Under the pieces are notes generated by a model. The model was not told where the DNA came from. It ran no database searches and saw only the letters and a program-made list of their open reading frames with translations. From Acidobacteriota bacterium (lineage in GTDB: Bacteria > Acidobacteriota > Vicinamibacteria > Vicinamibacterales > 2-12-FULL-66-21): a stretch of DNA of 61,896 nt. Shown piece by piece: positions 9,981 through 59,287 of this stretch (positions are counted from its first letter, which is position 1; the number at the start of each line of letters is the position of its first letter). Location of the stretch: positions 1 through 61,896 of the forward strand of contig JBKPLP010000010.1 in NCBI GenBank assembly GCA_046731735.1, given 5' to 3'. The position numbers were made by a program, and so were the translations under genes.

Positions 9981-9989
9981 CTGTTCCAC

Positions 9990-12102: not shown

Positions 12103-12104
12103 AG

Positions 12105-12206
12105 CATTACCAGAATTGCCAGAATTGTCAGAATTGCCAGAATCCATCGGTCAATTCAGGGGACGAAATTCTGGCAATTTTGGCAATTTAGCAATTTTGG
12201 CAATTC
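12105..12206. repeat. Inverted pair of nonamer arrays (AATTGCCAG x4 / TGGCAATT-like x4)
   Basis: attaccag aattgccag aattgtcag aattgccag ... ctggcaatt ttggcaatt tagcaatt ttggcaatt. Confidence 0.9.
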
Positions 12207-12210
12207 ACTG

Positions 12211-43281: not shown

Positions 43282-44421
43282 TTACGACAACAGGTTCTCC
43301 GCGATGACCATGCGCTGAATCTCGGACGTTCCCTGGTAGATTTCCGTCGCGCGCACGTCGCGGAACAGCCGTTCGACGACCGAGCCGCGGCGATATCCTT
43401 TGGACGCCAGAATCTGCATCGCCTTGTCGGCGGCGCGATGCGCGCTCTCCGAGGCGAACAGCTTCGCCATCGAGGCGTCCATCGTCGGCCGCGCTTCGCG
43501 CTGGCGCGAATCCGCAGCCTTGAGCGTGAGCATCCGCGCCGCGTCGAGTTCCGTCGCGATGTCGGCCAGCATCCATTGGATTGCCTGGTAATTGCCGATC
43601 GGCTGTCCGAAGGCTTCGCGCGACTTGGCGTGCTGCAGCGCCTCTCGCAGCGCCGCCGCACCGACGCCGAGCGCCTGCGCCGCAATCGCCACGCGTCCGC
43701 CGTCGAGGGCCCACATGGCGATACGGAATCCTTCGCCCGGACCGCCCAGGAGCGCGTCGGTATCCAGCTGGACGTTGTCGAGCTGGAGGTCCGCGCAGCC
43801 GAGGCCGCGCACGCCGAGCGAGTCCTGCGTACCGGCGCGCGTGATTCCGGGGGTGTCCATCGGCACGACGAACGCGCTGACGCCGCGTCCGCGGATGCCC
43901 GGCTGCGTCGCGGCGAACACGATCATGACATCGGCGGCCTCGGCGTTCGCCACCCACACCTTGCGGCCGCTAATCATGTAGCCGCGCTCGTCGAGCCTCG
44001 CGACGGACTGCTGGTTGGCGGCGTCGGAGCCAGCGTGCTCCTCCGACAAGGCAAACGCGCCGAGCGCAGCGCCTGACGCCAGCCGCCGCAGCCAGGTCTC
44101 CTTCTGGTCGTCGCTGCCGAACCGTGCAATCGGTTCAGCGACCAGCGAGTTGTGCACCGCCGCAATCACCGCAATCACCGCGCTGGCGCTCGCCAGCGCT
44201 TCCACGGCCAGCGCGTAACTGACGTAATCGAGGCCGGCGCCCCCCCATTCCTTCGGAATCGTGATTCCCATCAACCCGAGGGCGGCGGCTTCGCGGATCA
44301 GATCGCGCGGAAACGCGCCGGTCTCGTCGATCTCTGCCGCGCGCGGGGCGACGCGATCGGCGGCGAACTGCTGCACGCGCGCCTGGTATGCCTGCTGGTC
44401 GGGCGTGAGCTCGAGGATCAT
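43282..44421 (-). CDS. Acyl-CoA dehydrogenase family protein
   Basis: FALSEEHAGSD, LDGGRVAIAAQALG, ERLFRD, EIYQGTSEIQR. Confidence 0.9.
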   Translation of the reverse strand: MILELTPDQQAYQARVQQFAADRVAPRAAEIDETGAFPRDLIREAAALGLMGITIPKEWGGAGLDYVSYALAVEALASASAVIAVIAAVHNSLVAEPIARFGSDDQKETWLRRLASGAALGAFALSEEHAGSDAANQQSVARLDERGYMISGRKVWVANAEAADVMIVFAATQPGIRGRGVSAFVVPMDTPGITRAGTQDSLGVRGLGCADLQLDNVQLDTDALLGGPGEGFRIAMWALDGGRVAIAAQALGVGAAALREALQHAKSREAFGQPIGNYQAIQWMLADIATELDAARMLTLKAADSRQREARPTMDASMAKLFASESAHRAADKAMQILASKGYRRGSVVERLFRDVRATEIYQGTSEIQRMVIAENLLS

Positions 44422-44470
44422 GACGGCAACTGTACTTCACGACGAAGTTCGCGGGAACAGTGTCGCGTCG

Positions 44471-44550
44471 CAACGGACTCCGTCACATCCCAACGGACAG
44501 CGTCAGCTCGAAACGGACTGTGTCAGATCCAAACGGACCCCGTTACATCG
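44471..44550. repeat. Four tandem 20-bp repeats in a divergent intergenic region
   Basis: caacggactccgtcacatcc / caacggacagcgtcagctcg / aaacggactgtgtcagatcc / aaacggaccccgttacatcg. Confidence 0.85.
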
Positions 44551-44610
44551 GAAGTAGGGTATTCTCCCCGTCACGAAAGCTCAGCCGGAAACTGGCGGAG
44601 GAGGGCAATC

Positions 44611-45198
44611 ATGAAAGTTCGAATTCTGCTCGCGTGCCTGGCAGTAGCCTGCCTCGGAGGACTCACCGCGGTGCTGGCGCAGGAGACGGCGAAGAAGCCG
44701 GCCGCGCCGCAGCACGCCACGGGCGGCAGCGATGCGGACATCGTCAAGAGCGCGATGACCGCGGCGCCTGCGGCGATCGCGAAGGCCGCAACCATCATCG
44801 CCGTCGGCGCGGATCACCAGATGCGCACGGTCCGCAAGGGCACGAACAACTTCACGTGCATGGCCGACAATCCCGACACCCCCGGTCCTGACCCGATGTG
44901 CGCCGACGCCAACGCGATGGAGTGGGTGCAGGCGTGGCTCGGCAAGAAGCAGCCGCCCGCGAGCAAGGTCGGCGTCATGTACATGCTCGAAGGAGGCACC
45001 GACGCGAGCAACACCGATCCGTACGCGACGAAGCCGGACGCGACGAACAACTGGATCAAGACCGGACCGCACGTGATGATCGTCGGCGCGAAAGGCATGA
45101 TGGATGCCTACTCCCGCCAGCCGAAACCGGACACAGCGCAACCGTACGTGATGTGGGCGGGCACGCCGTACGAGCATGTGATGCTGCCGGTGAAGTAG
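44611..45198 (+). CDS. Secreted hypothetical protein with Cys/Met/His motifs
   Basis: GGAGGAGG RBS, signal peptide (VLA-Q), FTCM, PMC, YML.GG, GPHVM, YEHVM. Confidence 0.8.
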   Translation: MKVRILLACLAVACLGGLTAVLAQETAKKPAAPQHATGGSDADIVKSAMTAAPAAIAKAATIIAVGADHQMRTVRKGTNNFTCMADNPDTPGPDPMCADANAMEWVQAWLGKKQPPASKVGVMYMLEGGTDASNTDPYATKPDATNNWIKTGPHVMIVGAKGMMDAYSRQPKPDTAQPYVMWAGTPYEHVMLPVK

Positions 45199-45294
45199 GG
45201 CTTCAGGTCTCCAGGGCTTCAAGGCTTCAGGGTTACGATGCTTCAGGGCTTGAAGTCTTGAAGCCATGAAGCCTTGAAGCCTTTAAGCCTTGAA
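45199..45294. repeat. Inverted pair of octamer arrays (GGCTTCAG / CCTTGAAG)
   Basis: About six units per arm between convergent genes; the HIT stop codon lies in the right arm. Confidence 0.88.
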
Positions 45295-45774
45295 CCGTTC
45301 GAAGAGCGGTCTGAGCTTCGCGGCGGTCACGTGCAGTTCCTCGGGCAACACGCGCGTGTCGCCGACGACCGTCATGAAGTTGGTATCGCCGTTCCATCGC
45401 GGCACGACGTGCATGTGGACGTGATCGAGAACGCCGGCGCCCGCCGGCTTTCCCAGGTTGATCCCCATGTTCATGCCGTGCGGATTGAAGGCCTCGCCGA
45501 GCGCCAGCTCTGAACGGCGCGTGAGCTCGATCAACTCACAGAGCTCGTCGGCCGTGGCTGCCGCCAGCGAGGCGATGTGGCGGTTCGGTACGACCATGAG
45601 GTGGCCGTTGTTGTACGGATAGAGATTGAGAATGACGTAGCAGGTCTTGCCGCGGAAAACGATGAGCGAGGACTGTTCTTCCGACGGATTCTGCGCGTCG
45701 CAGAACACACACCCTGGAGACTTACCGCTGCCGGTCACGTAGGCAAGTCTCCAGGGCGACCACAGGCGATCCAG
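45283..45774 (-). CDS. HIT-family nucleotide hydrolase (probable CTG start)
   Basis: DRLWSPWR, CVFC, LNLYPYNNGHLMVVP, HVHMHVVPRW. Confidence 0.9.
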   Translation of the reverse strand: MDRLWSPWRLAYVTGSGKSPGCVFCDAQNPSEEQSSLIVFRGKTCYVILNLYPYNNGHLMVVPNRHIASLAAATADELCELIELTRRSELALGEAFNPHGMNMGINLGKPAGAGVLDHVHMHVVPRWNGDTNFMTVVGDTRVLPEELHVTAAKLRPLFERFKA

Positions 45775-45778
45775 CGCC

Positions 45779-46144
45779 CTACACTCCTGCGATGTCGGGG
45801 TCGACGGCCAGTGGAGCGGGCGTCGGCGGAACCGGCGCCGCTTCGGGTTCGCGATTGATCAGCTCCTTCAGCTCCTTGCCGGGCTTGAAGTAGGGGACTT
45901 TCTTCGGCGGAACGTCCACCTTGTCGCCCGTCTTCGGATTGCGCCCCTTGCGCGGTTCGCGCCGGCGCAGGCGGAAGCTCCCGAAGCCCCGCAGCTCGAT
46001 CTTCTCCCCGCGGTGCAGGGCGTCGATGATGCTCTTGAAGACCGTGTCGACGATGACCTCCGAGTGTTTCTTCGTGAGATCCGAAACGCGCGAGACTTCC
46101 TCGACGAGCTCCGCTTTCGTCATGCTGCCGTTGGTCATGGGCAC
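45779..46144 (-). CDS. ihfB: HU/IHF family protein (IHF-beta-like)
   Basis: MTKAELV, IELRGFGSF, GRNPKTG, FKPGKELK; follows rpsA; exact start uncertain. Confidence 0.85.
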   Translation of the reverse strand: MPMTNGSMTKAELVEEVSRVSDLTKKHSEVIVDTVFKSIIDALHRGEKIELRGFGSFRLRRREPRKGRNPKTGDKVDVPPKKVPYFKPGKELKELINREPEAAPVPPTPAPLAVDPDIAGV

Positions 46145-46153
46145 TCCTCGAAA

Positions 46154-46192
46154 CAGCTGTCAGCTATCAGTTCTCAGCAAAGGCTGACAGCT
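46154..46192. repeat. Short heptamer array (CAGCTRT) with inverted tail
   Basis: cagctgt cagctat cagttct cagc...gctgacagct. Confidence 0.6.
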
Positions 46193-46194
46193 TC

Positions 46195-47961
46195 TTACTG
46201 CTGATGCTTGAAGTGATCGCCAAGCGTCACTTCGGGCCGTCCGGTCGTCTCCGTATACGCTTCCCAGTCCGCGCGGAACTCGTCGCTCTTCAGCGCGCGG
46301 ATGCTCAGACCGATCTTCCGCTCCGCCGGGATCAGCTTGATGATCTTCATCTGGTAGGTCTCCCCCACCTTCAGATCCAGCTTCTCGTCCTTGCCGGCGT
46401 GCTGCGAGTCGTCGAACTCCGACACGTGAATCAGCCCTTCGATGCCCTCTACCAGCTCGACGAACGCGCCGAAGTTGGTCAACCGGACCACCTTCCCTTC
46501 GACGACGTCGCCGCCGTGGTGCTGCTGGAAGAACTCATCCCACACATCCGTCTGCAGCTGTTTCAGTCCCAGCGACAGCCGCTGGTTCTCGGCGTCGATG
46601 TTGAGCACCATCGCCTCGACGGTGTCGCCCTTCTTCAGCACTTCCGAGGGGTGCTTGAGGCGCTTGCTCCATGACATGTCGGAGATGTGAATCAGGCCGT
46701 CGATGCCCTCCTCGACCTCGACGAAGGCGCCGAACTCCGTCAGGTTGCGCACCTTGCCGGTGATCGTCGTCCCGATCGGATACTTCTCCGTCAGCTCGTG
46801 CCAGGGGTTGCTCTCGACCTGTTTCAAGCCGAGCGAGATGCGCCGCGCGCCGGGATCGACGCCGAGCACCATCGCTTCGACGCTGTCGCCGACGTTGAGG
46901 ATCTTCGACGGATGCTTGACCCGCTTGCTCCACGACATTTCGCTGACGTGGATCAGCCCTTCGACCCCGGGCTCGAGCTCCACGAACGCGCCGTAGTCGG
47001 TGAGACTGACGACCTTGCCGCTCATCCGCGCGCCGACCGGATACCGCTCGATCACGTTCGACCACGGATCGTTCATCAGCTGCTTGTGCCCGAGCGACAC
47101 GCGCTCGGTCGCCGGGTCGTACTTGAGCACGATGACGTCGATCTCGTCGTTGACCTTGAAGAGCTCCGACGGATGTGAGACCCGGCCCCACGACATGTCG
47201 GTGATGTGGAGAAGCCCGTCGATGCCGCCGAGGTCGATGAACGCGCCGTAGTCGGTAATGTTCTTGACGACGCCACGGAGGACCTTCCCCTCGGCGAGCG
47301 TGTCGAGCGTGTGCTTCTTCTTCTCGGCGTTCTCTTCTTCGAGGAGCACCTTGCGCGACAGCACGATGTTGCCGCGCTTCTTGTTCACCTTGATCACGCG
47401 CATCCGCAGCTCCTGGCCGCGCAGCGCGTCCAGATTGCGGACCGGACGCACATCGATCTGCGAACCGGGGAGAAACGCGCGCACGCCGATGTCGACCGCC
47501 AGACCGCCCTTGATCCGTTCGATCACGCGGCCGATGACGACTTTCTTCTCGGCGTAGGCCTTCTCGACCTCGTCCCAGATCTTCATCTTCTCGGCCTTTT
47601 CGCGCGAGAGGACGACGTAGCCTTCACGGTCTTCGGTGCGTTCGAGCAGCACGTCGACGGTGTCGCCCGGCTGCACGGAAATCTGTCCGTTCTCGTCGAT
47701 GAACTCGTCGACGGGAATGATCCCTTCCGACTTGTAGCCGACGTCGACGATGACTTCTGAAGGGGTCACTTTCAGAACGGTGCCCTTCACGACCTCGCCT
47801 TCCGCGATGTTGCGGAAGCTGTTATCGTAAAGGTCGAGAAGGCGGGCGTATTCCTGCGGATCGACCTGATCGTCCATCTGGGAGAAACCTGATGTCTTCA
47901 GATCAGCGGTTCCGGTGCCACCTCCTTTGGGATTGGTGTGCGAGTGGTTGTCGGTTGCCAT
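46195..47961 (-). CDS. rpsA: 30S ribosomal protein S1
   Basis: Repeated S1 domains: DVGYKSEG, AFLPGSQ, YGAFIDLGGIDGLLHITDMSW, YGAFVEL, FGAFVE. Confidence 0.98.
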   Translation of the reverse strand: MATDNHSHTNPKGGGTGTADLKTSGFSQMDDQVDPQEYARLLDLYDNSFRNIAEGEVVKGTVLKVTPSEVIVDVGYKSEGIIPVDEFIDENGQISVQPGDTVDVLLERTEDREGYVVLSREKAEKMKIWDEVEKAYAEKKVVIGRVIERIKGGLAVDIGVRAFLPGSQIDVRPVRNLDALRGQELRMRVIKVNKKRGNIVLSRKVLLEEENAEKKKHTLDTLAEGKVLRGVVKNITDYGAFIDLGGIDGLLHITDMSWGRVSHPSELFKVNDEIDVIVLKYDPATERVSLGHKQLMNDPWSNVIERYPVGARMSGKVVSLTDYGAFVELEPGVEGLIHVSEMSWSKRVKHPSKILNVGDSVEAMVLGVDPGARRISLGLKQVESNPWHELTEKYPIGTTITGKVRNLTEFGAFVEVEEGIDGLIHISDMSWSKRLKHPSEVLKKGDTVEAMVLNIDAENQRLSLGLKQLQTDVWDEFFQQHHGGDVVEGKVVRLTNFGAFVELVEGIEGLIHVSEFDDSQHAGKDEKLDLKVGETYQMKIIKLIPAERKIGLSIRALKSDEFRADWEAYTETTGRPEVTLGDHFKHQQ

Positions 47962-48128
47962 GCTAAACGGGTCCTCCTCGGTCGTGCTTGGGCCGGGATC
48001 TCAGCTCCGGCGGGCTGTAGGATTGCTTCGCTGCAATGTGCGATAAGCAATAGAAGATACATCACTTACAGGCCTCCAGTCAACGTGGTCAGGGCGGCGG
48101 GGCGCCCTGCTTTCCAGAGGTTGAAACC

Positions 48129-48953
48129 ATGGCCAAGAAAGCGGTGAAGCGGCGGGCCGGCGGCTCCGCTCGGACAGGTTCCACGAAGCGCCAGAAGGCG
48201 GCGGGGCGGAAGAAGCGCGCCGGCTCAGGTGCGCGCGCGGCCCGCGGCCGTGCCGCCACGAATCGCCGGAAAAAAGCCGCACGCACCACCGGGCGCCGGG
48301 CAGCCGCGGCGAAAACGGCGAAGACGAAGAAGCGGAAGCGCTCCCTCCGGGATCTTCGCGCCGGTGCGCGCGCGAAAAAGCGACCGGTGACCAGGCGACG
48401 CGGCGCCTCGACGAAACCGAGAGCCGGCGGCACCGGCCGCGAGGAAGAGCTCGATCAGACGCCGCAGACCGGGCGCAGCGTGCAGGGTCCCACCAATCCG
48501 ATGCCAACGCGGCGATCGACCGGCACGGCGTCGGGCGCCGGCAGCACGCGCCGCGCGCCCGGACTGGAGCGCGCCCGCAAGCAGCTTCGCGAGATCGAAG
48601 AGACGATTCCCGGTCCGCCCTCGAGCCTTGGGCTGGATCGGCGTCCCTCCGCCGCGCGCAGCGGCCGCCACGAGCTCGCCGAAACGCGCCGCGAGCACAA
48701 CGAGGTGAGTCCGGACCTCACGGCGGGCGACGTCGACGCCGACTGGGAGGACGCATACTCGGTCGGCGACGAAGCGCCCGGCGGCGACAATCCGACGCCG
48801 GATCAGGATCGCGTCGACGACATCGGCAAGGCGCTCGGCGTCCAGTACGACGACAACGAGGAGCTCAAGGCTGCCGACAAGATCGCCGAACGCGACAAGC
48901 ACCGCTGGGAGCTGGATCCCGCGTCATCGGACGACTATCGCGATCGCGACTGA
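48129..48953 (+). CDS. Protein with very basic N-terminus and acidic DUF6335-like C-terminus
   Basis: K/R/A-rich first ~100 aa; LTAGDVDADW...VGDEAPGGDNPTPDQD.VDDIG.ALG. Confidence 0.75.
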   Translation: MAKKAVKRRAGGSARTGSTKRQKAAGRKKRAGSGARAARGRAATNRRKKAARTTGRRAAAAKTAKTKKRKRSLRDLRAGARAKKRPVTRRRGASTKPRAGGTGREEELDQTPQTGRSVQGPTNPMPTRRSTGTASGAGSTRRAPGLERARKQLREIEETIPGPPSSLGLDRRPSAARSGRHELAETRREHNEVSPDLTAGDVDADWEDAYSVGDEAPGGDNPTPDQDRVDDIGKALGVQYDDNEELKAADKIAERDKHRWELDPASSDDYRDRD

Positions 48954-49612
48954 GCGGCCGCGACGACTTCCATCACTCGTGCGACGGCGTCCTCGATGGA
49001 GAGCGCCGTCGTATCGATCCGCACGGCATCATCGGCCATCTTCAGCGGCGAAGCACTCCTGGTGCTGTCGATCCGATCGCGCTCGGCGAGCGCGGTGGCG
49101 ACTTCCTGGATGGTCCCCGTCCCCGTGCCGGCGGCGTGCGCGGGATCGGTCGCCCGCCGCCGCGCTCGTTCCTCGGGTGAGGCGTCGAGAAAGATTTTGA
49201 CATCCGCGCGAGGAAACACCACCGTTCCGATGTCGCGGCCTTCCATCACCACTCCACCGCCGGCGCCATCGGCGCGCTGACGCGTGATCAGCGCTTCGCG
49301 GACGCGCGGCTGACGCGCGACGATCGCGGCCGCCTTGTCGATGTCAGGCGTGCGGATCTCTCTGGCCACGTCGTGGCCGTCGATGCTGACCCTCCCGTCG
49401 CCGACATCGAACCGCGCGCGTCGGGCGAGCTCCGCCACCAGCGGCTCGTTCTCGAGATCCAGCCCCTCGTGGCGCGCCTTCCACGCGACCGCGCGATACA
49501 TCGCGCCCGTGTCGACGTGGTGGTACCCGAGGCGCGCCGCGACCGCGCGCGCAATCGTTCCCTTCCCGGCGCCGGACGGGCCGTCGATGGCGATGATGAG
49601 GTGCTTACGCAT
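48935..49612 (-). CDS. cmk: Cytidylate kinase
   Basis: IAIDGPSGAGKGT, DTGAMYR, MEGRDIGTVVFP, ERARRR; start at ATG 49612. Confidence 0.96.
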   Translation of the reverse strand: MRKHLIIAIDGPSGAGKGTIARAVAARLGYHHVDTGAMYRAVAWKARHEGLDLENEPLVAELARRARFDVGDGRVSIDGHDVAREIRTPDIDKAAAIVARQPRVREALITRQRADGAGGGVVMEGRDIGTVVFPRADVKIFLDASPEERARRRATDPAHAAGTGTGTIQEVATALAERDRIDSTRSASPLKMADDAVRIDTTALSIEDAVARVMEVVAAAQSRSR

Positions 49613-49613
49613 A

Positions 49614-49718
49614 CCGGGATCCGGGATCCGGGATCCGGGATCCGGGATCCGGGATCCGATCTTTTCGGATTCCGAATCCGATGCTTTCGGATCCCGCATC
49701 CCGGATCCCGCATCCCGA
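49614..49718. repeat. Inverted pair of heptamer arrays (CCGGGAT x6 / GSATCCC x4)
   Basis: Read directly in the cmk leader; the same unit occurs inside uvrC. Confidence 0.92.
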
Positions 49719-49737
49719 TACAGTATTATCCCCCGCA

Positions 49738-50892
49738 ATGCCCGTGAGAAGGAGCGCGCTGGTCGCGGGGATTCCGGTGTTCGTCGTCGCCCTCGCGCTC
49801 GTCCTCTCCAATTCGTATTTTCGCGCGGCCGCATTCGTGATCCAGGCGGCGGGAATGCAGGGACTCGCGCGGACCGCAGCGTCGCTCGAGACGAGCACGT
49901 TTTCCGAGCGGGCGCTGATGATTCCCTGGCGCGGCGGACAGCTGCGCGCGCGGCTGTATCGGCCCGTCGGCGCGTCAGATCGCGCAATGCTGCTGGTCCC
50001 GGGCGTGCACGCCTCAGGCGTCGACGAGCCGCGGCTGGTGCAGTTCGCCAAGGATCTCGCATCCGTGCGCCATACCGTGCTGACGGCAGAACTCGCCGAT
50101 TTGACTCAGTACCGCATCACGCCGAGAACGACGGACATGATCGAGGACGCCGCGCGGTGGCTCAGCGGCCAGCACGACCTCGCGCCGGACGGCCGGATCG
50201 GCATGATGGGAATCAGCTTCGCTGGCGGCCTTTCGATCATCGCGGCGTCGCGGTCGCCGCTTCGCGATCGCGTCGCCTTCGTGATGTCCTTCGGCGGCCA
50301 CGGCGACTTGCCGCGGACGCTGCGCTATCTCTGCACCGGCATTCAGCCCGACGGCTCGACGTTTCCCCCGCACGATTACGGCGTGGTCGTCATCCTGTTG
50401 AGCGTCGCCGATCAGGTCGTGCCCGCCGATCAAGTCGAGCCACTCCGGCGGGTGATCCTGACCTACCTCGACGCGTCGCGGCTCGATCTGATCGACAAGA
50501 ACGAATCGTGGAATACGTACCAGCGCGCGCGCGCGATGACCGCCACGCTGCCGGAGCCGGCGAAAACGCTGATGGGCTACGTGAACGAGCGGGATGTCGC
50601 GCATCTTGGGGCCATCCTGCTGCCGCACGTGACGAAGCTCGGCGACGATCGCGCGCTGTCGCCGGCGAGCGAAGCGAAGCCCGCTGCCACGGTGTATCTG
50701 CTGCATGGAACCGGGGACAACGTGATTCCCGCGATCGAGTCCACGCTGTTGGCGCAGACGCTCAGGGCGCGCGGCGTCACCGTGCATCAGCTCGCGACGC
50801 CGCTCATCACCCACGCAGAGGTCGATCGGTCCGCGACCGCAGCCGCGATGTGGAATCTGGTGTCGTTCTGGGAAAAGCTGCTGACGGAGTAA
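49738..50892 (+). CDS. Alpha/beta hydrolase with N-terminal anchor
   Basis: GISFAG nucleophile elbow, LLHGTGDNVIP, ITHAE. Confidence 0.75.
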   Translation: MPVRRSALVAGIPVFVVALALVLSNSYFRAAAFVIQAAGMQGLARTAASLETSTFSERALMIPWRGGQLRARLYRPVGASDRAMLLVPGVHASGVDEPRLVQFAKDLASVRHTVLTAELADLTQYRITPRTTDMIEDAARWLSGQHDLAPDGRIGMMGISFAGGLSIIAASRSPLRDRVAFVMSFGGHGDLPRTLRYLCTGIQPDGSTFPPHDYGVVVILLSVADQVVPADQVEPLRRVILTYLDASRLDLIDKNESWNTYQRARAMTATLPEPAKTLMGYVNERDVAHLGAILLPHVTKLGDDRALSPASEAKPAATVYLLHGTGDNVIPAIESTLLAQTLRARGVTVHQLATPLITHAEVDRSATAAAMWNLVSFWEKLLTE

Positions 50893-50896
50893 ACGA

Positions 50897-50927
50897 AGGA
50901 GATAGGAGATAGGAGATAGGAGGTAGG
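50897..50927. repeat. Heptamer array AGGAGAT x3 + AGGAGGT, forming the rluB RBS
   Basis: Runs directly into ATG 50928. Confidence 0.9.
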
Positions 50928-51665
50928 ATGCCCGAGCGCCTGCAGAAGATACTCTCGGCCGCCGGAGTTGCGTCGCGGAGGGCCGCCGAGGCGTACATCA
51001 CGGACGGGCGTGTGTCCGTCAATGGGCGCACAGTGACGGAGCTCGGCACCAAGGCCGATCCTCAGGTCGACGACATTCGAGTCGACGGGCGTCGCGTCAG
51101 ACCTGCCGCGCGCCGGCTGTATATCCTGATGTACAAGCCGCGTGGATACATCACCAGCCGGTCGGATCCGCAGCGGCGGCCAACCGTGATCGACCTCCTC
51201 ACGAAAGGCGGCGTTCGCGAGTACGTGTACCCCGTCGGGCGTCTGGATTACGAGTCGGAGGGTCTGCTCCTGCTGACGAGCGACGGCGATCTCGCCGCGC
51301 GCCTGACGCATCCGAGTCACGAGGTGGAACGTGAGTACCACGCGCGAGTGCGCGGGGTGCCCGATCGCTCCACGATCGAGCGGCTCGCGAAAGGGATCGT
51401 TCTTGACGGACGGAAGACGGCGCCAGCGCAGGTAACGCTGCTGAAAGTCATCGAAGGCGAACACGGCTCCGATGCCGTGATATCACTCGTCTTGCATGAA
51501 GGACGAAATCGCCAGGTCCGCAATATGTGCGAGGCGATCGGTCATCCGGTGGTACGCCTGCGGCGCGTCCGGATCGGACCTATTACGGACGAACGGATTC
51601 GACCGGGCGAATTCAGGCAGCTCGAAGCCAAAGAGATTGCAGCTCTACGTCGAGCCGCCCGGTAA
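50928..51665 (+). CDS. rluB: Pseudouridine synthase, RluB/RsuA family
   Basis: ERLQKIL..AGVASRR (S4 domain), YPVGRLD, EGRNRQVR. Confidence 0.9.
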   Translation: MPERLQKILSAAGVASRRAAEAYITDGRVSVNGRTVTELGTKADPQVDDIRVDGRRVRPAARRLYILMYKPRGYITSRSDPQRRPTVIDLLTKGGVREYVYPVGRLDYESEGLLLLTSDGDLAARLTHPSHEVEREYHARVRGVPDRSTIERLAKGIVLDGRKTAPAQVTLLKVIEGEHGSDAVISLVLHEGRNRQVRNMCEAIGHPVVRLRRVRIGPITDERIRPGEFRQLEAKEIAALRRAAR

Positions 51666-51698
51666 CTCCTACGTCCTACGTCCTACCTCCTACATCCT
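51666..51698. repeat. Heptamer array (TCCTACG/TCCTACC), inverted relative to 50897-50927
   Basis: ctcctacgtcctacgtcctacctcctacatcct. Confidence 0.88.
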
Positions 51699-51701
51699 CG
51701 T

Positions 51702-52361
51702 TCAGTGCACCGTCTCAGTTTCGTCCTCCGGCAGCTCCGCGCGCTGGGGTGGTTCCGCAGCCGCATCCGCGTCGGCGTCGAACGGCAGCGGGCTCGTCGT
51801 CTGCGGCGGCTCGCCGAGTGCGCCTGGCAGCTCGAAGCCAAGCGCGTCGGACATCTCTTCGACTTTCGGCAGATCGCCGATATCGTTCAGGCCGAAGCGC
51901 TGCAGGAACTCGCGTGTTGTCGCATACATGAATGGCCGGCCGATGACCTGCTTCCGGCCAACGGTTTTGATCAGGTGACGCTCGACGAGCGTTGCGAGCA
52001 CGCCCCCGCTGCTGGTCACGCCGCGGATCTCTGCGATTTCCGGCGCGGTGATCGGCTGTTTGTAGGCAATGACCGCGAGCGTCTCGAGCGCCGGCACCGA
52101 CAGCTTCTGCGTCGTCCGCTCGTGAAACAGCTTGCGCACCCAGTCGTGCAGCTCGGCACGGGTGACGAGCTGGTAGCCCCCCGCGACCTCGACGATCTGG
52201 AGGCCGCCCGGTCGATCGTAGTCCGCTCGCAACGCGGCCAGCGCGGCGTCGACGTCCTCCCGCGGCTCTCCTTCGAGCAGTTTGTACAGCGTCTTCGGCG
52301 TGAGCGGCTCCGGCGACGCGAAGATGAGCGCCTCGACAATCGGTTTCAGTTGGTCACTCAT
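51702..52361 (-). CDS. scpB: SMC-Scp subunit ScpB
   Basis: EALIFAS, EVAGGYQL, ALETLAVIAYKQPIT, GRPFMYATT..FL..FGL. Confidence 0.95.
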   Translation of the reverse strand: MSDQLKPIVEALIFASPEPLTPKTLYKLLEGEPREDVDAALAALRADYDRPGGLQIVEVAGGYQLVTRAELHDWVRKLFHERTTQKLSVPALETLAVIAYKQPITAPEIAEIRGVTSSGGVLATLVERHLIKTVGRKQVIGRPFMYATTREFLQRFGLNDIGDLPKVEEMSDALGFELPGALGEPPQTTSPLPFDADADAAAEPPQRAELPEDETETVH

Positions 52362-52368
52362 AGGGCAA

Positions 52369-53190
52369 TCATTCTTCGGTGTTCAGCTTTTCGATTTCCG
52401 CGGCGTGGCGCGTTTCCGGATCGAGAAGCGGCTTCGGCGCATCGGCCGGCCGCGCGCGTTTGTAAACGCGTATCGGGCCCATCGCGCCCGACTGGAAGAC
52501 GCGAATCAGCTTCAGCCGAATCATCTCCAGCATCGCCAGAAACGTGACGACGACGCCGGAGCGCGACTGGACGTCGGCGAACAGGTCCTCGAAGCCGCAG
52601 GCTTCGGTTTCCGAGAGCTTCGCCATCAGCTGCTCGATTCGATCCTCGATCGGAATCTGCTCACCCGGCAGATAGATCTGCGGTCGCTGCCTGGCGCGTT
52701 CAACCACCGTGCGAAACGCCGCAATGAGGCTGAACAGATCGACCTCGACTTCCGGTTCCGGTGCCTCGCCGGCGATCTCCGCGATCGGACCGTCGGGACG
52801 CGTCCATTGCGCGCTGCGCAGCGTCTCGCGCTCATGGAGGAGTTCGGCCGCCGCCTTGAACTTCTGGTGCTCGAGCAGGCGCCTCACCAGCGCTTCGCGC
52901 GGATCCTCCTCGGGATCTTCCTGCGTCGGGTCCGCGCGCGGCAGCAGCATGCGCGACTTGATGTGGATGAGCGTGGCCGCCATCACCAGGAACTCTCCGG
53001 CGACATCGAGATTGAGCTCCTGCATCAGGTCGATATACGCAAGATACTGCTCGGTAATGCGCGCGATCGGAATGTCGTAGATGTCGACCTCGTGCTTCTT
53101 GATGAGGTGCAACAGCAGATCGAGCGGGCCCTCGAACGTGTCGAGCCGGACGGGATAGGCTTCGAGGATCGATTCGAATTCCGGTTCCAT
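52369..53190 (-). CDS. scpA: Kleisin ScpA
   Basis: FEGPLDLLLHLI, EFLVMAATLIHIKSRMLLP, TFLAMLE. Confidence 0.95.
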   Translation of the reverse strand: MEPEFESILEAYPVRLDTFEGPLDLLLHLIKKHEVDIYDIPIARITEQYLAYIDLMQELNLDVAGEFLVMAATLIHIKSRMLLPRADPTQEDPEEDPREALVRRLLEHQKFKAAAELLHERETLRSAQWTRPDGPIAEIAGEAPEPEVEVDLFSLIAAFRTVVERARQRPQIYLPGEQIPIEDRIEQLMAKLSETEACGFEDLFADVQSRSGVVVTFLAMLEMIRLKLIRVFQSGAMGPIRVYKRARPADAPKPLLDPETRHAAEIEKLNTEE

Positions 53191-53196
53191 TTAGTA

Positions 53197-53231
53197 AATT
53201 GCCAAAATTGCCATAATTGCCAGAATCGCCG
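53197..53231. repeat. Single-arm nonamer array (AATTGCCAN x4)
   Basis: aattgccaa aattgccat aattgccag aatcgccg. Confidence 0.85.
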
Positions 53232-53242
53232 AAAAGACGTGT

Positions 53243-54232
53243 TCAGTATTTGAGTTTTACCGCCGCGCGGACTCGTTCCATCGTCTCTTGAGCGATCCCA
53301 CGGGCCTTCCGCGACCCCTCGTGCAGAATCTCGCGAACGCGCTCCGGTCTGGCCGCGATCTCGGCCCGGCGTGCGCGCATCGGATCGAGGTGGGCGTTCA
53401 ACGCTTTCGCGAGTTTCGTTTTTACTTCCACGTCGCCGACCTTGCCGGCGCGATAGCGGGTCTTCAACTCCTCGACTTCGGCCTTATCCGGATTGAACGC
53501 GTCGTGATACGTGAATACCGGGTTGCCCTCGACGGTGCCGGGAATATCCGCGCGCACCCGTTTCGGGTCCGTGTACATCTGCATCACCTTCTTCCGCACC
53601 ATCTCGGCGTCGTCCGAGAGGTCGATGGTGTTGCCGTAGCTCTTCGACATCTTGCGGTTGTCGAGGCCAGGCAACCGCGGAAAAGTCGTGAGCAGCTGCT
53701 CCGGCTCGACAAACAGTTCACCATAGAAGTTGTGAAACCGCCGGACGATCTCGCGGCTGAGTTCGAGGTGCGGTACTTGATCCTCCCCGACCGGCACGTA
53801 GTGCGCGTTGTACATGATGATGTCGGCGGTCTGGAGCAGCGGGTAACCGAGGAAACCGAGGGTCGACAGATCTTTCTCCGACAACTGCTCGATCTGCTCC
53901 TTGTAGGTCGGCACCCGTTCGAGCCACGGAATCGGAATCGTCATCGAAAGAAGCAAGAACAGCTCGGCGTGTTCCGGTACCAGCGATTGGATGAACAGCG
54001 TGCTGCGTTCGGGATCGAGTCCCGCTGCGATCCAGTCGGCCGCGTTGTCGTACGCATTGGCGACGACTTCGGACGTGTTCGCGTAGTCGCTCGTCAGCGC
54101 GTGCCAGTCCGCGACGAAATAAAAGCAGTCGTATTGCTCCTGGAGCGAAGCCCACTTATTGAGAGCTCCGACGAGGTGACCGAGGTGGAGCTTCCCGGTC
54201 GGGCGCATGCCCGAAACAACGCGCGGCTTCAT
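53243..54232 (-). CDS. trpS: Tryptophanyl-tRNA synthetase
   Basis: SGMRPTGKLHLGH, YPLLQTADI, VPVGEDQ, KMSKS. Confidence 0.96.
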   Translation of the reverse strand: MKPRVVSGMRPTGKLHLGHLVGALNKWASLQEQYDCFYFVADWHALTSDYANTSEVVANAYDNAADWIAAGLDPERSTLFIQSLVPEHAELFLLLSMTIPIPWLERVPTYKEQIEQLSEKDLSTLGFLGYPLLQTADIIMYNAHYVPVGEDQVPHLELSREIVRRFHNFYGELFVEPEQLLTTFPRLPGLDNRKMSKSYGNTIDLSDDAEMVRKKVMQMYTDPKRVRADIPGTVEGNPVFTYHDAFNPDKAEVEELKTRYRAGKVGDVEVKTKLAKALNAHLDPMRARRAEIAARPERVREILHEGSRKARGIAQETMERVRAAVKLKY

Positions 54233-54298
54233 CAGGAGTCTGAATGCCCAGACTAAGCGAAAAGTCACGCAGTATCAAGGACTTGGATCCCCGCCGAT

Positions 54299-56224
54299 TC
54301 AAGAATGCGCTGCGAAGTGCGCGAGAACCGCATCGGCGCACCTCGCGCCGACGACCTTCATCAACTCCTCGCGCGTTGCCCGCCGCACACCGGCAAGACT
54401 GCCGAACGCCGTCAGCAGCGCCTTGCGACGACGTGGACCGATGCCTTCGATTACGTCCAGCTCGGATCGCAGATCGCGCTTCGTGCGCGACAGGCGATGA
54501 AACGTGACGGCGAACCGATGCGCTTCGTCGCGAATGCGCCGAATCAGCAGCAGCGCGGGACTGTCTTCCGCGAGCGCGATGGCGTTCTCGCGATCGCGCG
54601 TGTAGAGCAGCTCCTCTTTCTTGGCAATGCCCACCGCGATAAGGCTGCCCAACCCCAGCTCTTCGAGTGCCTGATAGGCCGAAGTGAGTTGGCCTTTACC
54701 GCCGTCGATGAGGATGAGATCCGGGAAGGGCCCGCCGCTTTCCAGCAGCTTGCGATAGCGGCGCAGGACGACTTCGTGCATTGCCGCGAAGTCGTTGAGG
54801 AATCGTGCGTCACGGGATCCGGGATCCGGGATCCGGGATCCGGAGGAATCGGCAATCCGGGATCCGACGGATCCCGGATCCCGCATCCCGGATCGCGGAA
54901 CGATCGCATTCCCCCGAATCCGAAACTTCTTGTACTCCGACCGCTTCATCCTCCCGTCTTCGCACACGACCAGCGACGCGACGGTTTCCGCCCCCTGAAT
55001 CGTGGAGATGTCGAAGCACTCGATCCGGCGCGGGGCCGCCGGCAGCGCGAGCACCGCGCGCAACGTTTCGAGCGCGTCGTAGTTCGCCGCGACGTTCTCG
55101 TTGAAGCGGGCCTGGTAGGCGACCTCCGCATTGCGAGCGGCGAGCTCGAGCAACCCGCGCTTCTCGCCACGCTTCGGGACGACGAGCCGCACGCGCCGCC
55201 CTGCCTCGCCCGAGAGCCATCCTTCCAGCAGCTCGGCATCGGCAGCGGGAAACGGAACCGGGATGTGCACTTCCGGCGCCGCGATGCGCTCCGCATAGAA
55301 CTGTTGCAGCGCAGCCTGGAGCACATCGCACTCGTCGAGGACGACGATGGTGCTCCCCGCGGCCTCGGTGACCAGCTCGGTCCGCTCGACCACCTTCCCG
55401 TTTCGCGTCTGGAACACCTGGACGACGGCGCCGGCGGGACCAATCTTCAGGCCAAAGGCGTCGCGGTCGCCAAACTGCGGCGACGCCATCTTCTGCTGGC
55501 GGGTGCGCAGCGTCTCGATCGTGCGGATGGCGTCCCGAAGCTGTGCTGCCTGCTCGTATCGTTCCTCAGCCGCGGCCTCCGCCATCCGTTCCCGCAGCGT
55601 ATAGAGCAGCTCGTCGTTGCGCCCTTCCAGGAACAGCTTGGTATGTTCGACGGCCACGCGGTATTCGCCCTCCGAACAGAGCGTGTGGACGCACGGCGCG
55701 ACACAGCGTTTGATGTCGAATTCGAGGCACGCCCGCGCCCGCTCGCCCGTGATCACCTCGTTGCAGGATCGGATCCCGAACAGCTTGTGGGTCAGCGACA
55801 TCGTCCGGCGCGCGAGCGACGCCGGCATGAACGGTCCGGCATAGAAATGTTCGTCGCGCTCGACGCGGCGCGCCACCAGCACGCGCGGGTACGCTTCGCC
55901 GGTGGTCAGCTGCAGATACGGGTAAGTCTTGTCGTCGCGGAGCAGGATGTTGTATTTCGGCGCACGCTGCTTGATCAGGTTGTTCTCGAGCGCGAGCGCC
56001 TCGACGACCGAGTCGGTCACTATCACCTCGAGGTGCTCGGCCTCGTCGAGCAGCGCGTCGATGCGTGGGCTCGTGCCATAGGCGCCCAGATAGCTGCGCA
56101 CGCGGTCGCGCAGCACCCGAGCCTTGCCGACGTACAGCGTTTCCCCCTGCCCGTTCGCATACAGGTAGACGCCGGGCTGCTCCGGCAGCCGCGCTATCTG
56201 GGTCTTGAGATCACGGATCGGCAT
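54299..56224 (-). CDS. uvrC: Excinuclease ABC subunit C with an in-frame repeat-derived insertion
   Basis: PGVYL...YVGKA (GIY-YIG), RIECFDIS, LIDGGKGQ, IRDEAHRFA, GIGPRR. Confidence 0.96.
   Translation of the reverse strand: MPIRDLKTQIARLPEQPGVYLYANGQGETLYVGKARVLRDRVRSYLGAYGTSPRIDALLDEAEHLEVIVTDSVVEALALENNLIKQRAPKYNILLRDDKTYPYLQLTTGEAYPRVLVARRVERDEHFYAGPFMPASLARRTMSLTHKLFGIRSCNEVITGERARACLEFDIKRCVAPCVHTLCSEGEYRVAVEHTKLFLEGRNDELLYTLRERMAEAAAEERYEQAAQLRDAIRTIETLRTRQQKMASPQFGDRDAFGLKIGPAGAVVQVFQTRNGKVVERTELVTEAAGSTIVVLDECDVLQAALQQFYAERIAAPEVHIPVPFPAADAELLEGWLSGEAGRRVRLVVPKRGEKRGLLELAARNAEVAYQARFNENVAANYDALETLRAVLALPAAPRRIECFDISTIQGAETVASLVVCEDGRMKRSEYKKFRIRGNAIVPRSGMRDPGSVGSRIADSSGSRIPDPGSRDARFLNDFAAMHEVVLRRYRKLLESGGPFPDLILIDGGKGQLTSAYQALEELGLGSLIAVGIAKKEELLYTRDRENAIALAEDSPALLLIRRIRDEAHRFAVTFHRLSRTKRDLRSELDVIEGIGPRRRKALLTAFGSLAGVRRATREELMKVVGARCADAVLAHFAAHS
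54813..54893. repeat. CCGGGAT inverted array inside uvrC
   Basis: cgggatc x4 ... ggatcccggatcccgcatcccggatc. Confidence 0.9.
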
Positions 56225-56288
56225 GCGGTACACTGCGCGTTTTGGCGCAATTCTGAACCTTCTATTATAGCGCGCGGCATCAGCACCT

Positions 56289-56888
56289 ATGACGTTTACG
56301 GGGCTCATCGGGCGGATCTGTATGGCTCCGCTCCGGCTCATCATCAATCTCTGCGTCGCACTAGGGATTCATCCCAACACGCTGACCTTCATCGGCGTGC
56401 TGATCAACGTCGCCGCCGCGTTCGAGCTGGCGGCCGGACGCTTCATCCGCGCCGGCGTCATCATGGTGGTGGCCAACATCTTCGACTTCATCGACGGCAA
56501 GGTGGCCCACGAATCGAACGCGGTCAGCGCGTTCGGCGGTTTCTGGGATTCCGTGATCGACCGGTTCTCCGACATCGCGCTGTTCCTCGGGCTGATTTAC
56601 CTGTACTCGCACCTGGGGCGCACCGATTACGCGATGGTGGCCGCGATCGCGATGATGTTCGCGATCATGACGAGCTACACGCGCGCCCGTGCCGAATCGC
56701 TGATCAAGAAATGCAAGGTCGGATTCATGGAACGGCCCGAGCGGATCGTCCTCTTCATGATCGGCGCGTTCACCAACCGGATGGCCGCCGTGCTGTGGGT
56801 CATCGGCGTGTTGTCGGTGTTCACGGTTGCCGACCGGATCATCTACACCTATCGCGAGCTGCGCGATACCGAGCAGGCTATCGCATGA
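56289..56888 (+). CDS. CDP-alcohol phosphatidyltransferase
   Basis: HPNTLT, DFIDGKVAH...FGGFWDSVIDRFSD, SYTRARAE, ERPER. Confidence 0.92.
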   Translation: MTFTGLIGRICMAPLRLIINLCVALGIHPNTLTFIGVLINVAAAFELAAGRFIRAGVIMVVANIFDFIDGKVAHESNAVSAFGGFWDSVIDRFSDIALFLGLIYLYSHLGRTDYAMVAAIAMMFAIMTSYTRARAESLIKKCKVGFMERPERIVLFMIGAFTNRMAAVLWVIGVLSVFTVADRIIYTYRELRDTEQAIA

Positions 56889-57068
56889 AGAACCCAGCCA
56901 CGCTTCCGGGGCGCATCCTCTGGAACGCGTTCTTCTGGACTTACGAGCGTGCCACCTGGCAGTACGACGTCATGGTGATCGCCATTCTGGCATTCGTCTG
57001 GCTCACGCCGCCCGGCTGGCTGCACGATCCGATGGCGTCAGGCGAGGGACCCATCGGGTGGATTCTCA

Positions 57069-57088
<20 letters not shown>
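56885..57088 (+). CDS. Small membrane protein (67 aa)
   Basis: ATGA overlap with the upstream stop; FWTYERATWQYDVMVIAILAFVWLTP. In the ORF track it appears only as the tail of 54305..57088. Confidence 0.7.
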
Positions 57089-57132
<44 letters not shown>

Positions 57133-57135
57133 CGT

Positions 57136-57705
57136 TCACACGTCATCCCGCTCATCGTGCATACCGAGATCGAGCGGCTTTCCCGCAAAGTGGATGTCGT
57201 AGGTGGCGATCTTGTCGCGGAGCAGGCGCCGCGCCGCGCCGTAGTACACCTCGGGCACGACCAGGCTGCGCGCGAACGCGCGCATGCGATAGATGACCAC
57301 CAGCGTCGGCTTCTCTCCCTGCCGCCACGACAGCCCGCCGATCTTCCAGTACGGAACGAAGCCGGCATCGGCCCAGATCCCGTCCTGGTAGAACCCCCGC
57401 CCGATCTTCGCGCTGAGCGGCATCGCGTAGACGTAATACACGAGCATCGTCGTCTCGCCGAACACGTTGATGATGCTCATGCGCAGGAACGCGAGCTTGT
57501 AGACGATGAGCAGGCTCAGCACCGCGCCGAGCACGACCACGAGGCCGGAGAACGGGGGGTTCGTGGCCGGCCAGGTGAGCAGGGCGGAATGACGCAGCCG
57601 GCGGAACCGAAGAAACTGATAGAACAGCCGCAGGTCGGCGACAAAGAAACCGACACCAAGCAAGACCAGCAGGTTTGCGGGGTTCGCGAGGAATTCGTTG
57701 TACAA
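57136..57705 (-). CDS. Hypothetical membrane protein
   Basis: Three hydrophobic segments, then GFYQDGIW; TTG 57705 start inferred. Confidence 0.7.
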   Translation of the reverse strand: MYNEFLANPANLLVLLGVGFFVADLRLFYQFLRFRRLRHSALLTWPATNPPFSGLVVVLGAVLSLLIVYKLAFLRMSIINVFGETTMLVYYVYAMPLSAKIGRGFYQDGIWADAGFVPYWKIGGLSWRQGEKPTLVVIYRMRAFARSLVVPEVYYGAARRLLRDKIATYDIHFAGKPLDLGMHDERDDV

Positions 57706-57731
57706 CGCCGGGCCTGACCCCCGGCATTTTA

Positions 57732-58304
57732 TTACTGACCGAGTCGCGGGTCGAAACAGTGCCGGCAGCGGGCCTCGTACGTCCCTTGCGCGCCGACGAG
57801 CACGCGCTCGCTGCTCGCGACAAGACGCTGCGTGTGGTTCGCCGGGGCGCCGCAGACCATGCAGATGGCCAGCGTCTTGGTGATGTATTCGGCGATCGAC
57901 AGCAGCTGCGGCATCGGCTCGAAGGGCTTGCCGAGGTAATCCTGGTCGAGCCCCGCGACGATGACGCGCTTGCCCTGGTCGGCGAGCGTGCTGCACACCA
58001 GCGGCAGGTCCGAGTCGAAGAACTGTCCCTCGTCGATGCCGACCACTTCGGTTTCCGGAAGCACTTCGGCGAGAAGTTCGCGCGAGGATGACAGGTTGAC
58101 CGACGGGATCCGCATGTCGCTGTGCGAGATGATGTGATCGTCTGCGTAGCGGTTGTCGAGCCGCGGTTTGAAGATCTGCACCTTCCGCTTCGCGATCTGC
58201 GCGCGGCGCAGCCGGCGGATGAGCTCCTCGCTCTTGCCGCTGAACATGCTGCCGGTGATCACTTCAATCCACCCGGAATTCGGCCGGTGCTGGCTTATGT
58301 CCAT
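57732..58304 (-). CDS. tdk: Thymidine kinase
   Basis: [30 protein letters not shown]...YEARCRHC. Confidence 0.96.
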
Positions 58305-58342
58305 CTGTTACTTCGCTCGGTGGGGGCCCTTTGACATTCCCC

Positions 58343-58402
58343 CCGCCTTCGCTCACCCGCTACGCGCGTGAGCTACGGCGGGCAGGCCGCCGGCCGAAGG
58401 CG
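58343..58402. repeat. CCGCCTTCGC...GCTACGGCG family (copy 2)
   Basis: Same ends as the copy at 3249-3274 with a different internal hairpin. Confidence 0.7.
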
Positions 58403-58404
58403 CT

Positions 58405-58968
58405 CTACGCACGAGAGAGGTACTCTCCGGTTTCGGTGTTGACGCGGATCTTGTCGCCATTGTTGACGAAGGGGGGCACGTTCACGACGAGGCCGGTTTC
58501 GAGCCGCGCCGGCTTGATCTGGTTGCTCGCCGTCGCGCCCTTGATACCAGGTGCGGTTTCCTCGACTACCAGATCCACCGTCTGCGGCAGCTCGATCCCG
58601 ACCGGCTCGCTGCCGTAGAACTCCACCTTGATGAGCGCATCCGGAATCAGGTAGTTGACGTTGTCGCCGAGCGCTTCCGCGTCGATGTGGAGCTGCTCGT
58701 ACGAGCTCGTATCCATGAAATGGAACGAATCCCCGTCGCGGTAGAGATACTGCATCTCGCGCTCATCCAGCGTGGCGCGTTCAACGAAGTCCTCCGACCG
58801 CAGCTTCTGATCGGCCAGCGTTCCGGTCCGGATGTTGCGGAACTTGACCCGCACGAATCCGCGCAGGTTCCCCGGCGTCACGTGTTGGAGCTCGAGCACG
58901 CGGAACAGATCCTGACCGACCTTGATCAGCATGCCTTTCTTCATTCTCGTCGCTTGTATGGAGGCCAT
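58405..58968 (-). CDS. efp: Elongation factor P (loop TPGNLRG)
   Basis: HVTPGN, MQYLY.DG..FHFMD..SYEQ, KPARLETG..V.VP.F, GEYLSRA. Confidence 0.95.
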   Translation of the reverse strand: MASIQATRMKKGMLIKVGQDLFRVLELQHVTPGNLRGFVRVKFRNIRTGTLADQKLRSEDFVERATLDEREMQYLYRDGDSFHFMDTSSYEQLHIDAEALGDNVNYLIPDALIKVEFYGSEPVGIELPQTVDLVVEETAPGIKGATASNQIKPARLETGLVVNVPPFVNNGDKIRVNTETGEYLSRA

Positions 58969-59038
58969 GTGTCGATGTCCAGAACCTTTCGATGTTAGCA
59001 CAGGGCGCCTAGGGCGCATTACACGCGCCTGCGGGCGT

Positions 59039-59268
59039 ATTGCCGATTGCCGGTTTCCGGGTGCCGAGTTATCGATTGTCGATTGCTGGTCGAGATCGGC
59101 GATTGTCGGTTCAGATTGCCGGTTTTCGAATCAGTTCCCGAGTCGCAATCGTCTGTCTCAATCGGCAATCTCAGTCGGCAATCGTCAATCTCAATCGGCA
59201 ATCATCAATCTCAATCGCCAATCGACAATCGCAAAAATCGGCACTCGGCAATCGTCAATCTGCAATCG
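59039..59268. repeat. Largest inverted heptamer array (GATTGYC / GGCAATC-like)
   Basis: Many degenerate units in two opposed arms filling the efp-Hsp20 divergent gap. Confidence 0.88.
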
Positions 59269-59287
59269 ATCCGGTAAGATCCCCCAT

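Follow-up and report, generated by a model that had tools for sequence, protein, structure and literature searches.

[quoted passage not shown] Invertons are phase-variable segments that combine inverted repeats with a dedicated invertase, and they are defined by the recombinase together with mixed orientations in one population (bioRxiv 10.1101/2023.03.11.532203; PMC11892184). A third body of work concerns the TAACTGA heptamer repeats of Beggiatoaceae, cyanobacteria and Bacteroidetes, for which a part in translation control and in the rearrangement of genomes has been suggested (PMC4679880).

Here we describe the gene rluB in a stretch of 61,896 nucleotides (the window) from the genome of a soil acidobacterium of the Vicinamibacterales, where it lies between two opposed heptamer arrays and is reversed relative to its close relatives. 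Like the strand-switching inversions of that report (PMC11040001), rluB is a gene that has changed strand, putatively by way of flanking inverted repeats that survive the event, so that it now faces the other way with respect to its neighbours and probably also to replication. It differs from the known inversions in that the repeats are short intergenic heptamer arrays and not insertion sequences, rRNA operons or long dispersed repeats; that exactly one housekeeping gene is turned together with its ribosome-binding site; that the match is perfect over 12 nt; and that two independent flips have taken place. With invertons, rluB shares a short segment between inverted repeats (10-30 nt) and an inversion that changes the expression context. 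The flanking inverted repeats of an inverton are present at rluB. No invertase was found in the 55 ORF translations of the window that were scanned, a whole gene is turned rather than a promoter or part of a gene, and the arms are generic tandem arrays rather than recombinase sites.

The two rluB arrays have a period of 7, several copies and a position between genes, and the arrays of these genomes resemble the TAACTGA repeats in their period of 7, in having 2-20 copies, in being almost entirely intergenic and in often preceding start codons (PMC4679880). TAACTGA genomes carry one or a few units genome-wide, mostly in direct arrays: in the Guaymas genome, 169 sets are direct and 1 is inverted (PMC4679880). 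In the Vicinamibacterales arrays, by contrast, the unit varies by locus and opposed hairpin pairs dominate: among 73 pairs of arrays at most 100 nt apart, 25 share at least 12 nt in inverted orientation and only 2 do so directly. Cyanobacterial STRR repeats are another intergenic heptamer tandem repeat. REP/BIME elements are like the present arrays in being abundant intergenic repeats that form hairpins and can provide dispersed homology for rearrangements; REP elements differ from them in having one consensus per genome and in not being tandem heptamers. Among the papers listed on repeats in Acidobacteria or Vicinamibacteria, we found no description of heptamer arrays of this kind.

rluB and its neighbours

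The product of rluB carries S4 (PF01479) and PseudoU_synth_2 (PF00849) domains in Pfam, as in the RsuA/RluB family of pseudouridine synthases, and passes the NCBIfam model TIGR00093 with 167.6 bits (cut-off 109.3). Against NF007976, the equivalog model for RluB (23S rRNA pseudouridine 2605 synthase), it reaches 167.4 bits, below the curated cut-off of 290. Because NF007976 is still the best equivalog-level model and because the gene occupies a conserved place after scpB, we use the name RluB.

An earlier note on this DNA had assigned rluB to the plus strand and trpS, scpA, scpB, cmk and rpsA to the minus strand; Pfam and NCBIfam agree with that assignment, and uvrC is on the minus strand too (Table 1). 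The note did not mention hyd, a putative hydrolase gene that adjoins rluB directly upstream and is co-directional with it, so rluB is not a lone plus-strand gene. The true start of hyd may fall downstream of 49717. The divergent spacer between cmk and hyd holds an array hairpin of its own, whose ATCCCGG-type unit is conserved in the sister genome L005 at 5653-5728; this spacer is likely to be the promoter region of the hyd-rluB unit.

A promoter and terminator scan of positions 48800-53400 gave one promoter-like site (0.6 expected) and three terminator-like sites (2.3 expected), none of them in either spacer of rluB, and an Rfam search of 44000-60000 returned 0 families at gathering score. Third-position GC skew was compared between rluB and its neighbours in order to date the flip and proved uninformative: the value for rluB is +0.017, beside averages of -0.007 (sd 0.10) in minus-strand genes and -0.052 (sd 0.10) in plus-strand genes.

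Table 1 Positions in the window of rluB, its flanking arrays and the neighbouring genes
Feature	Position	Strand	Basis
rpsA	46195-47961	-	Pfam S1, six stretches
cmk	48935-49600	-	Pfam Cytidylate_kin; NCBIfam cmk 235.6 bits
Opposed ATCCCGG-type arrays, hairpin in divergent cmk/hyd spacer	49614-49717		TRF; fold -82.7 kcal/mol
hyd, putative alpha/beta-hydrolase-fold gene	49681-50892	+	Weak Pfam matches below cut-off; tblastn maps
Hydrolase-side heptamer array	50897-50928	+	TRF: period 7, 4.6 copies, 96% matches
Perfect 12-nt arm of inverted match	50917-50928	+	0 mismatches
rluB, intact, 245 aa; the inverted segment	50928-51665	+	Pfam, NCBIfam, translation
scpB-side heptamer array	51667-51698	+	TRF: period 7, 4.6 copies, 92% matches
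Second arm of perfect 12-nt inverted match	51681-51692	-	Exact reverse complement of 50917-50928
scpB, convergent with rluB	51702-52361	-	Pfam SMC_ScpB 1.5e-53
scpA	52369-53190	-	Pfam SMC_ScpA 1.6e-44
trpS	53243-54268	-	Pfam tRNA-synt_1b 1.4e-70
uvrC	54299-56347	-	Pfam/NCBIfam

Opposed heptamer arrays fill both spacers of rluB

Direct reading places the stop codon of the hydrolase ORF at 50890-50892, followed by a spacer of 35 nt and the rluB ATG at 50928; at the other end, the rluB TAA (51663-51665) is followed by a spacer of 36 nt and the scpB stop at 51702-51704 on the minus strand. Arrays occupy 31 of the 35 bases of the first spacer and 32 of the 36 bases of the second. The hydrolase-side array is built of the unit AGGAGAT, with AGGAGGT as its final full unit; it contains the AGGAGG ribosome-binding motif 4 nt 5' of the rluB ATG, and its terminal base is the A of that ATG. 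The scpB-side array, between the convergent stops of rluB and scpB, has the unit TCCTACG, whose reverse complement is of the AGGACGT/AGGAGGT type. The bracket of two arrays with a perfect 12-bp inverted match that the earlier note had drawn around rluB was located accurately, as direct reading and TRF both confirm, and the match extends to 18 nt at 89% (16/18).

With up to two mismatches, the 12-mer matches the window 10 times against 0.84 expected, a count that none of 100 shuffles reached. Since 8 of these 10 matches sit within the two rluB arrays, the unit is private to these two spacers within the 62 kb. The rluB pair is also the sole array pair in the window whose arms are parted by a gene.

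rluB alone has been inverted, at least twice

A scan with the RluB protein, taking one genome per species, returned 80 loci, of which the closest came from Vicinamibacterales/Acidobacteriota metagenome-assembled genomes with 64-82% RluB identity; no genome in the scan was more than 82% identical in RluB. Among the 52 loci that hold scpB, it lies upstream of and co-directional with rluB in 45 (within 400 nt in 35) and on the opposite strand in 7, so the conserved co-directional order scpA-scpB-rluB on which the earlier note had drawn is real. When ten proteins of the window were mapped to the loci with tblastn, 22 Vicinamibacterales relatives fell into two arrangements. In arrangement A, uvrC-trpS-scpA-scpB-rluB lie on one strand and hyd on the other, followed by cmk-rpsA-HU-HIT; arrangement B, which is that of the window, differs from A solely by the reversed rluB. 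Relatives of both configurations agree in how hyd is oriented with respect to cmk and scpB.

In blastn comparisons of the window with ten close relatives, the rluB segment alone was inverted and both flanks were collinear in 10 of 10. Against L005, scpA and scpB are collinear up to 51701 and hyd and cmk from 50893, with 50932-51625 inverted, which confines the breakpoints to 50893-50932 and 51625-51701. The proposal that rluB was turned on its own, exactly between the arrays, is thereby upheld, with both breakpoints inside the two array-filled spacers. The locus thus shows an inverted segment with collinear flanks and inverted repeats at both breakpoints, as expected of inversion mediated by inverted repeats.

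A maximum-likelihood tree was computed from eight flanking proteins, with rluB and hyd excluded (26 rows, 2415 columns; IQ-TREE quick search, LG+G4; L008 and L010 dropped as too short). The window is sister to L005 (SH-aLRT 99; 93% amino-acid identity) and is nested in a starred set of 12 rows, 11 of which have arrangement A. Seven genomes with arrangement B (L009 and L011-L016) form a clade of their own, whose sister L017 has arrangement A, and the outgroups, which are without hyd, have arrangement A as well. The tree requires at least two changes of orientation, and an AU test rejected a single clade of all inverted genomes (p 1.1e-33). Taken together, the tree and the AU test demonstrate a historic and recurrent single-gene inversion: rluB was inverted at least twice independently, in the ancestor of the seven-genome clade and in the lineage of the window, there after its split from the L005 lineage.

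The earlier note had held that relatives with the same orientation and no arrays would count against its reading. Such relatives exist: L009, L013 and L015 are free of arrays between hyd and rluB, two genes that in L013 and L015 all but abut. The tree assigns these genomes to the other, separate event.

Heptamer arrays are abundant and usually form adjacent hairpins

We surveyed the window and 22 related loci (458 kb) for arrays of period 2-20 with at least 2.8 copies. Among the 256 short tandem arrays found, 137 have period 7, and 106 of these 137 lie mostly outside the crude gene calls, which cover 81% of bases. The two rluB arrays are one pair among very many intergenic heptamer arrays and are not special objects. 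Units vary between orthologous spacers of related genomes and recur inside one genome, and typically two opposed arrays stand next to each other and make a strong hairpin; in the window, the folds of such opposed-array hairpins range from -31 to -140 kcal/mol.

As a gauge of the level due to chance, inverted matches of at least 12 nt occur in 119 of 23010 pairs of arrays from different genomes and in 35 of 1008 same-locus pairs more than 2.5 kb apart. They occur in 10 of 197 same-locus pairs 300-2500 nt apart, so that inverted pairs spanning a gene are not clearly more frequent than distant ones of the same locus. Counted by gene, an inverted match of at least 12 nt links the two flanking spacers in 7 cases among 396 crudely called genes, all others having at most 10 nt. 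These seven are rluB of the window (12 nt), rluB of L005 (37 nt), cmk of L003 (21 nt), hyd of L002 (22 nt), the HIT gene of L014 (20 nt) and two more with 16 and 17 nt, and gene-spanning brackets are thus rare but recurrent. Two of the seven are genes shown to have flipped, against a few of the roughly 390 others, numbers that are too few for a test.

Bracketed and flipped genes in related genomes

In the sister genome L005, rluB is un-inverted, and each of the two corresponding spacers contains an array (3606-3664 and 4410-4484); the two arrays share a 37-nt perfect inverted match across 745 nt. A substrate for exchange is therefore present in the nearest relative. The L005 arrays are built of a unit different from that of the window (the best rotations agree at 5-6 of 7 positions by eye, an agreement for which homology is not claimed), so that common descent of the two brackets is only plausible. 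Because rluB of L005 is un-inverted yet bracketed, the bracket architecture probably predates the flip in the window, and it occurs in both orientations, as exchange would predict. Set beside the roughly 20% DNA divergence between the genomes, the perfect 37-nt match suggests that the arms still undergo exchange or that selection acts on their pairing.

Two further single-gene flips lie between inverted arrays. In L003, cmk alone (12031-12659) is inverted relative to L020 and L007, and 21 nt match perfectly in inverted orientation between its two TAGGAGG-type arrays (11905-11936 and 12737-12757). An acyl-CoA dehydrogenase gene (15693-16847 in L001; homologue of window 43282-44421) is flipped in L001 only, where the flanking inverted GCTGA-type arrays share an 11-nt perfect match. 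A small membrane-protein gene without a Pfam match (window 57136-57672, minus strand) is flipped in L001 (3688-4228), L004 (3182-3719) and L003 (2862-3370) and is not flipped in their sisters L018 and L020, which implies at least three events. In these three flips, the longest inverted match between the 220-nt flanks is 7-8 nt, equal to background in a null distribution, and the older rluB flip, that of the seven-genome clade, likewise lacks a matching pair of inverted arrays around rluB alone.

A model for inversion through the arrays

The reading that we favour, with moderate confidence, is a historic and precise inversion of rluB by exchange between pre-existing inverted arrays. In the ancestral order, uvrC-trpS-scpA-scpB-rluB lay on one strand, followed by the oppositely oriented hydrolase gene and then by cmk-rpsA. 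Exchange between the two arrays, either by homologous recombination or by RecA-independent strand or template switching at close short inverted repeats, would flip everything between the crossover points (the 738-nt gene) and leave both arrays in place. The inner units would travel with the gene, so that rluB would retain its AGGAGG site and its ATG while leaving the trpS-scpA-scpB unit for a position 35 nt downstream of hyd, convergent on scpB.

When worked out from the sequence, a crossover in the 12-mer does place rluB 20 nt after the scpB stop with AGGAGG and ATG intact, much as the earlier note had predicted. This predicted ancestral scpB-rluB spacer of 20 nt resembles the short spacers of L004 and L019 and has AGGAGG 4 nt before the ATG. 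The note's further expectation that a flip alters the transcription context of rluB also holds, the gene having moved from after scpB to after the hydrolase gene. As rluB begins 35 nt after hyd and no promoter-like site lies between them, the two genes are probably co-transcribed from the divergent cmk/hyd spacer.

We infer that the arrays existed before the event and served as its substrate, as well as the kind of recombination involved, and the array-mediated mechanism appears to be the best-supported explanation. In its favour are the perfect inverted matches in L005 (37 nt), around cmk in L003 (21 nt) and in L001 (11 nt), and the two flipped genes among the seven bracketed ones. Efficient RecA recombination usually needs roughly 20-30 nt. 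Against the mechanism stands the perfect match in the window, which at 12 nt is under the RecA length, whereas those of L005 and L003 are above it; the window arrays may have matched better at the time of the event, as those of L005 do today, or a RecA-independent route may have been taken. Moreover, an inversion that spares all three genes must break in these array-rich spacers, and the presence of arrays at the breakpoints is therefore partly forced.

Two other origins of the bracket were rejected. Had an inversion split an ordinary adjacent hairpin at the loop, the arrays on the two sides of the gene would be direct repeats instead of inverted ones. A replicative-transposition-like origin, in which the second array is made together with the flip, is at odds with L005, where the bracket exists without the inversion.

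rluB offers a clean and comparatively dated case in which a single gene of an essential pathway was turned, precisely to the base, between short repeats. This happened on two independent occasions, and in a phylum whose genome dynamics have been little studied. It ties abundant intergenic heptamer hairpin arrays to the local reshuffling of operons. If the arrays drive such flips, they would be a genome-wide source of change in gene orientation and would bear on the debate over how genes come to switch between the leading and the lagging strand. Flips that proved reversible would amount to phase variation without a recombinase.

Alternative explanations

The strongest rival, which we consider unlikely though deserving of serious weight, holds that the arrays are bystanders and that rluB was inverted in some other way, for example by breaks at hairpin-forming spacers with end joining, or by illegitimate recombination. 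The arrays would then match through a limited genome-wide vocabulary of units, or because selection favours base pairing between the untranslated 5' and 3' ends of the rluB transcript, by which the ribosome-binding site would be concealed or the RNA made more stable. Much of the survey is in keeping with this rival: heptamer arrays are everywhere and mostly outside gene calls, gene-spanning inverted pairs are not clearly commoner than distant same-locus pairs, and both the three flips of the membrane-protein gene and the older rluB flip took place where no matching inverted repeats flank the gene. A shared vocabulary, however, poorly explains a unit that in 62 kb occurs only at the two rluB spacers, and the bystander reading has also to accommodate both the flips of two in seven array-bracketed genes and the 37-nt perfect inverted pair at rluB in the sister genome.

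Pairing in the transcript receives support from the minimum-free-energy RNA fold of 50885-51705 (-384.9 kcal/mol for the whole fold, z -5.7), in which the outermost helix joins the 5' array to the 3' array and covers AGGAGG. The pairing is imperfect outside the 12-mer, though, and RNA pairing and DNA exchange are compatible. On the basis of this predicted fold, a transcript role of the rluB arrays is possible and would be compatible with a DNA-level mechanism.

A bolder extension of array-mediated exchange, which we regard as quite doubtful, is that self-complementary heptamer arrays flanking a gene make a recombinase-free invertible cassette in Vicinamibacterales, so that rluB would still be flipping between the scpAB and hydrolase units on ecological or short evolutionary time scales. 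The 37-nt match of L005 would then be kept identical by repeated exchange, and the arrays might in addition pair in the transcript and gate translation.

An active reversible switch in the sense of phase variation, with a mixed population in which rluB toggles between the scpAB and hyd units, seems improbable. Inverted repeats are still present at both ends in the window, the L005 arms match perfectly over 745 nt despite about 20% DNA divergence, which suggests continuing exchange, and rluB has flipped at least twice in 24 genomes. These points are set against the 12 perfect nt that are all the window retains, a stable orientation throughout the seven-genome clade with hyd and rluB tightly joined in L013 and L015, and the housekeeping nature of rluB, for which a benefit of on/off control is not obvious. 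Nor was any site-specific recombinase, integrase or transposase domain detected in the 55 ORF translations searched, which cover the window minus 9.9-12.2 and 15.9-17.6 kb, the sole related domain being an IstB/DnaA-like ATPase at 4599-5465.

That the plus orientation is an assembly error is scarcely credible: repeats do flank the rluB segment, but the arrangement also occurs naturally in 7 independent assemblies of the related clade, rluB and both its neighbours are intact with sensible spacers, and a repeat of 12-18 nt falls far below the read or k-mer length of any current assembler.

Further repeats and gene-content differences

Opposed-array pairs with units of 7-9 nt are found in the window at 2028-2122, 4497-4596, 12106-12205, 45197-45294, 49614-49717, 57069-57133 and 59039-59268. 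The unit differs at most of these loci; the spacers concerned are divergent, convergent and co-directional, and relatives are alike in carrying such pairs with other units. A few units are re-used per genome at several loci, as with CTACTGA at 7 sites of L014. In the trpS-scpA unit, just before the scpA start, a lone 9-nt array of 4.3 copies with no partner lies at 53196-53234; 'ATTGCC'-type units related to it recur at 4497-4596, 12106-12205 and 59039-59268.

Within uvrC, an in-frame ATCCCGG/CCGGGAT opposed-array hairpin at 54813-54899 encodes about 30 residues between conserved blocks. The corresponding part of uvrC holds other arrays in relatives and marks a break in blastn homology. Dense periodic repeats of 9, 18, 27 and 81 nt occupy 37322-37953 and overlap a minus-strand ORF without a Pfam match (37278-37796); they may be a collagen-like Gly-X-Y coding repeat.

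Besides its TAGGAGG-type arrays, cmk of L003 is flanked by ACAGAAA-type arrays (11905-12781). The flipped acyl-CoA dehydrogenase gene of L001 has long heptamer arrays of the GCTGA type to both sides, and one side also carries a short inverted set. At 3660-3690 of L005, the conserved start position of rluB reads AGG in place of the ATG of the window and L007, and no in-frame ATG, GTG or TTG is nearby; faulty sequencing, an atypical start codon or damage to the gene could account for this.

The hydrolase gene is missing between rluB and cmk in the sister pair L001 (10732-10919) and L018 (8484-8666). As the remaining Vicinamibacterales loci spanning this interval all have the gene, its absence suggests secondary loss. 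Finally, a REP-like palindrome, GCTTCCGCC ... GGCGGAAGC, is absent beside rluB of the window and is repeated in the rluB-adjoining spacers of several relatives (L001 at about 9925-9965, L002 at about 10785-10810 and L007 at about 9925-9990).
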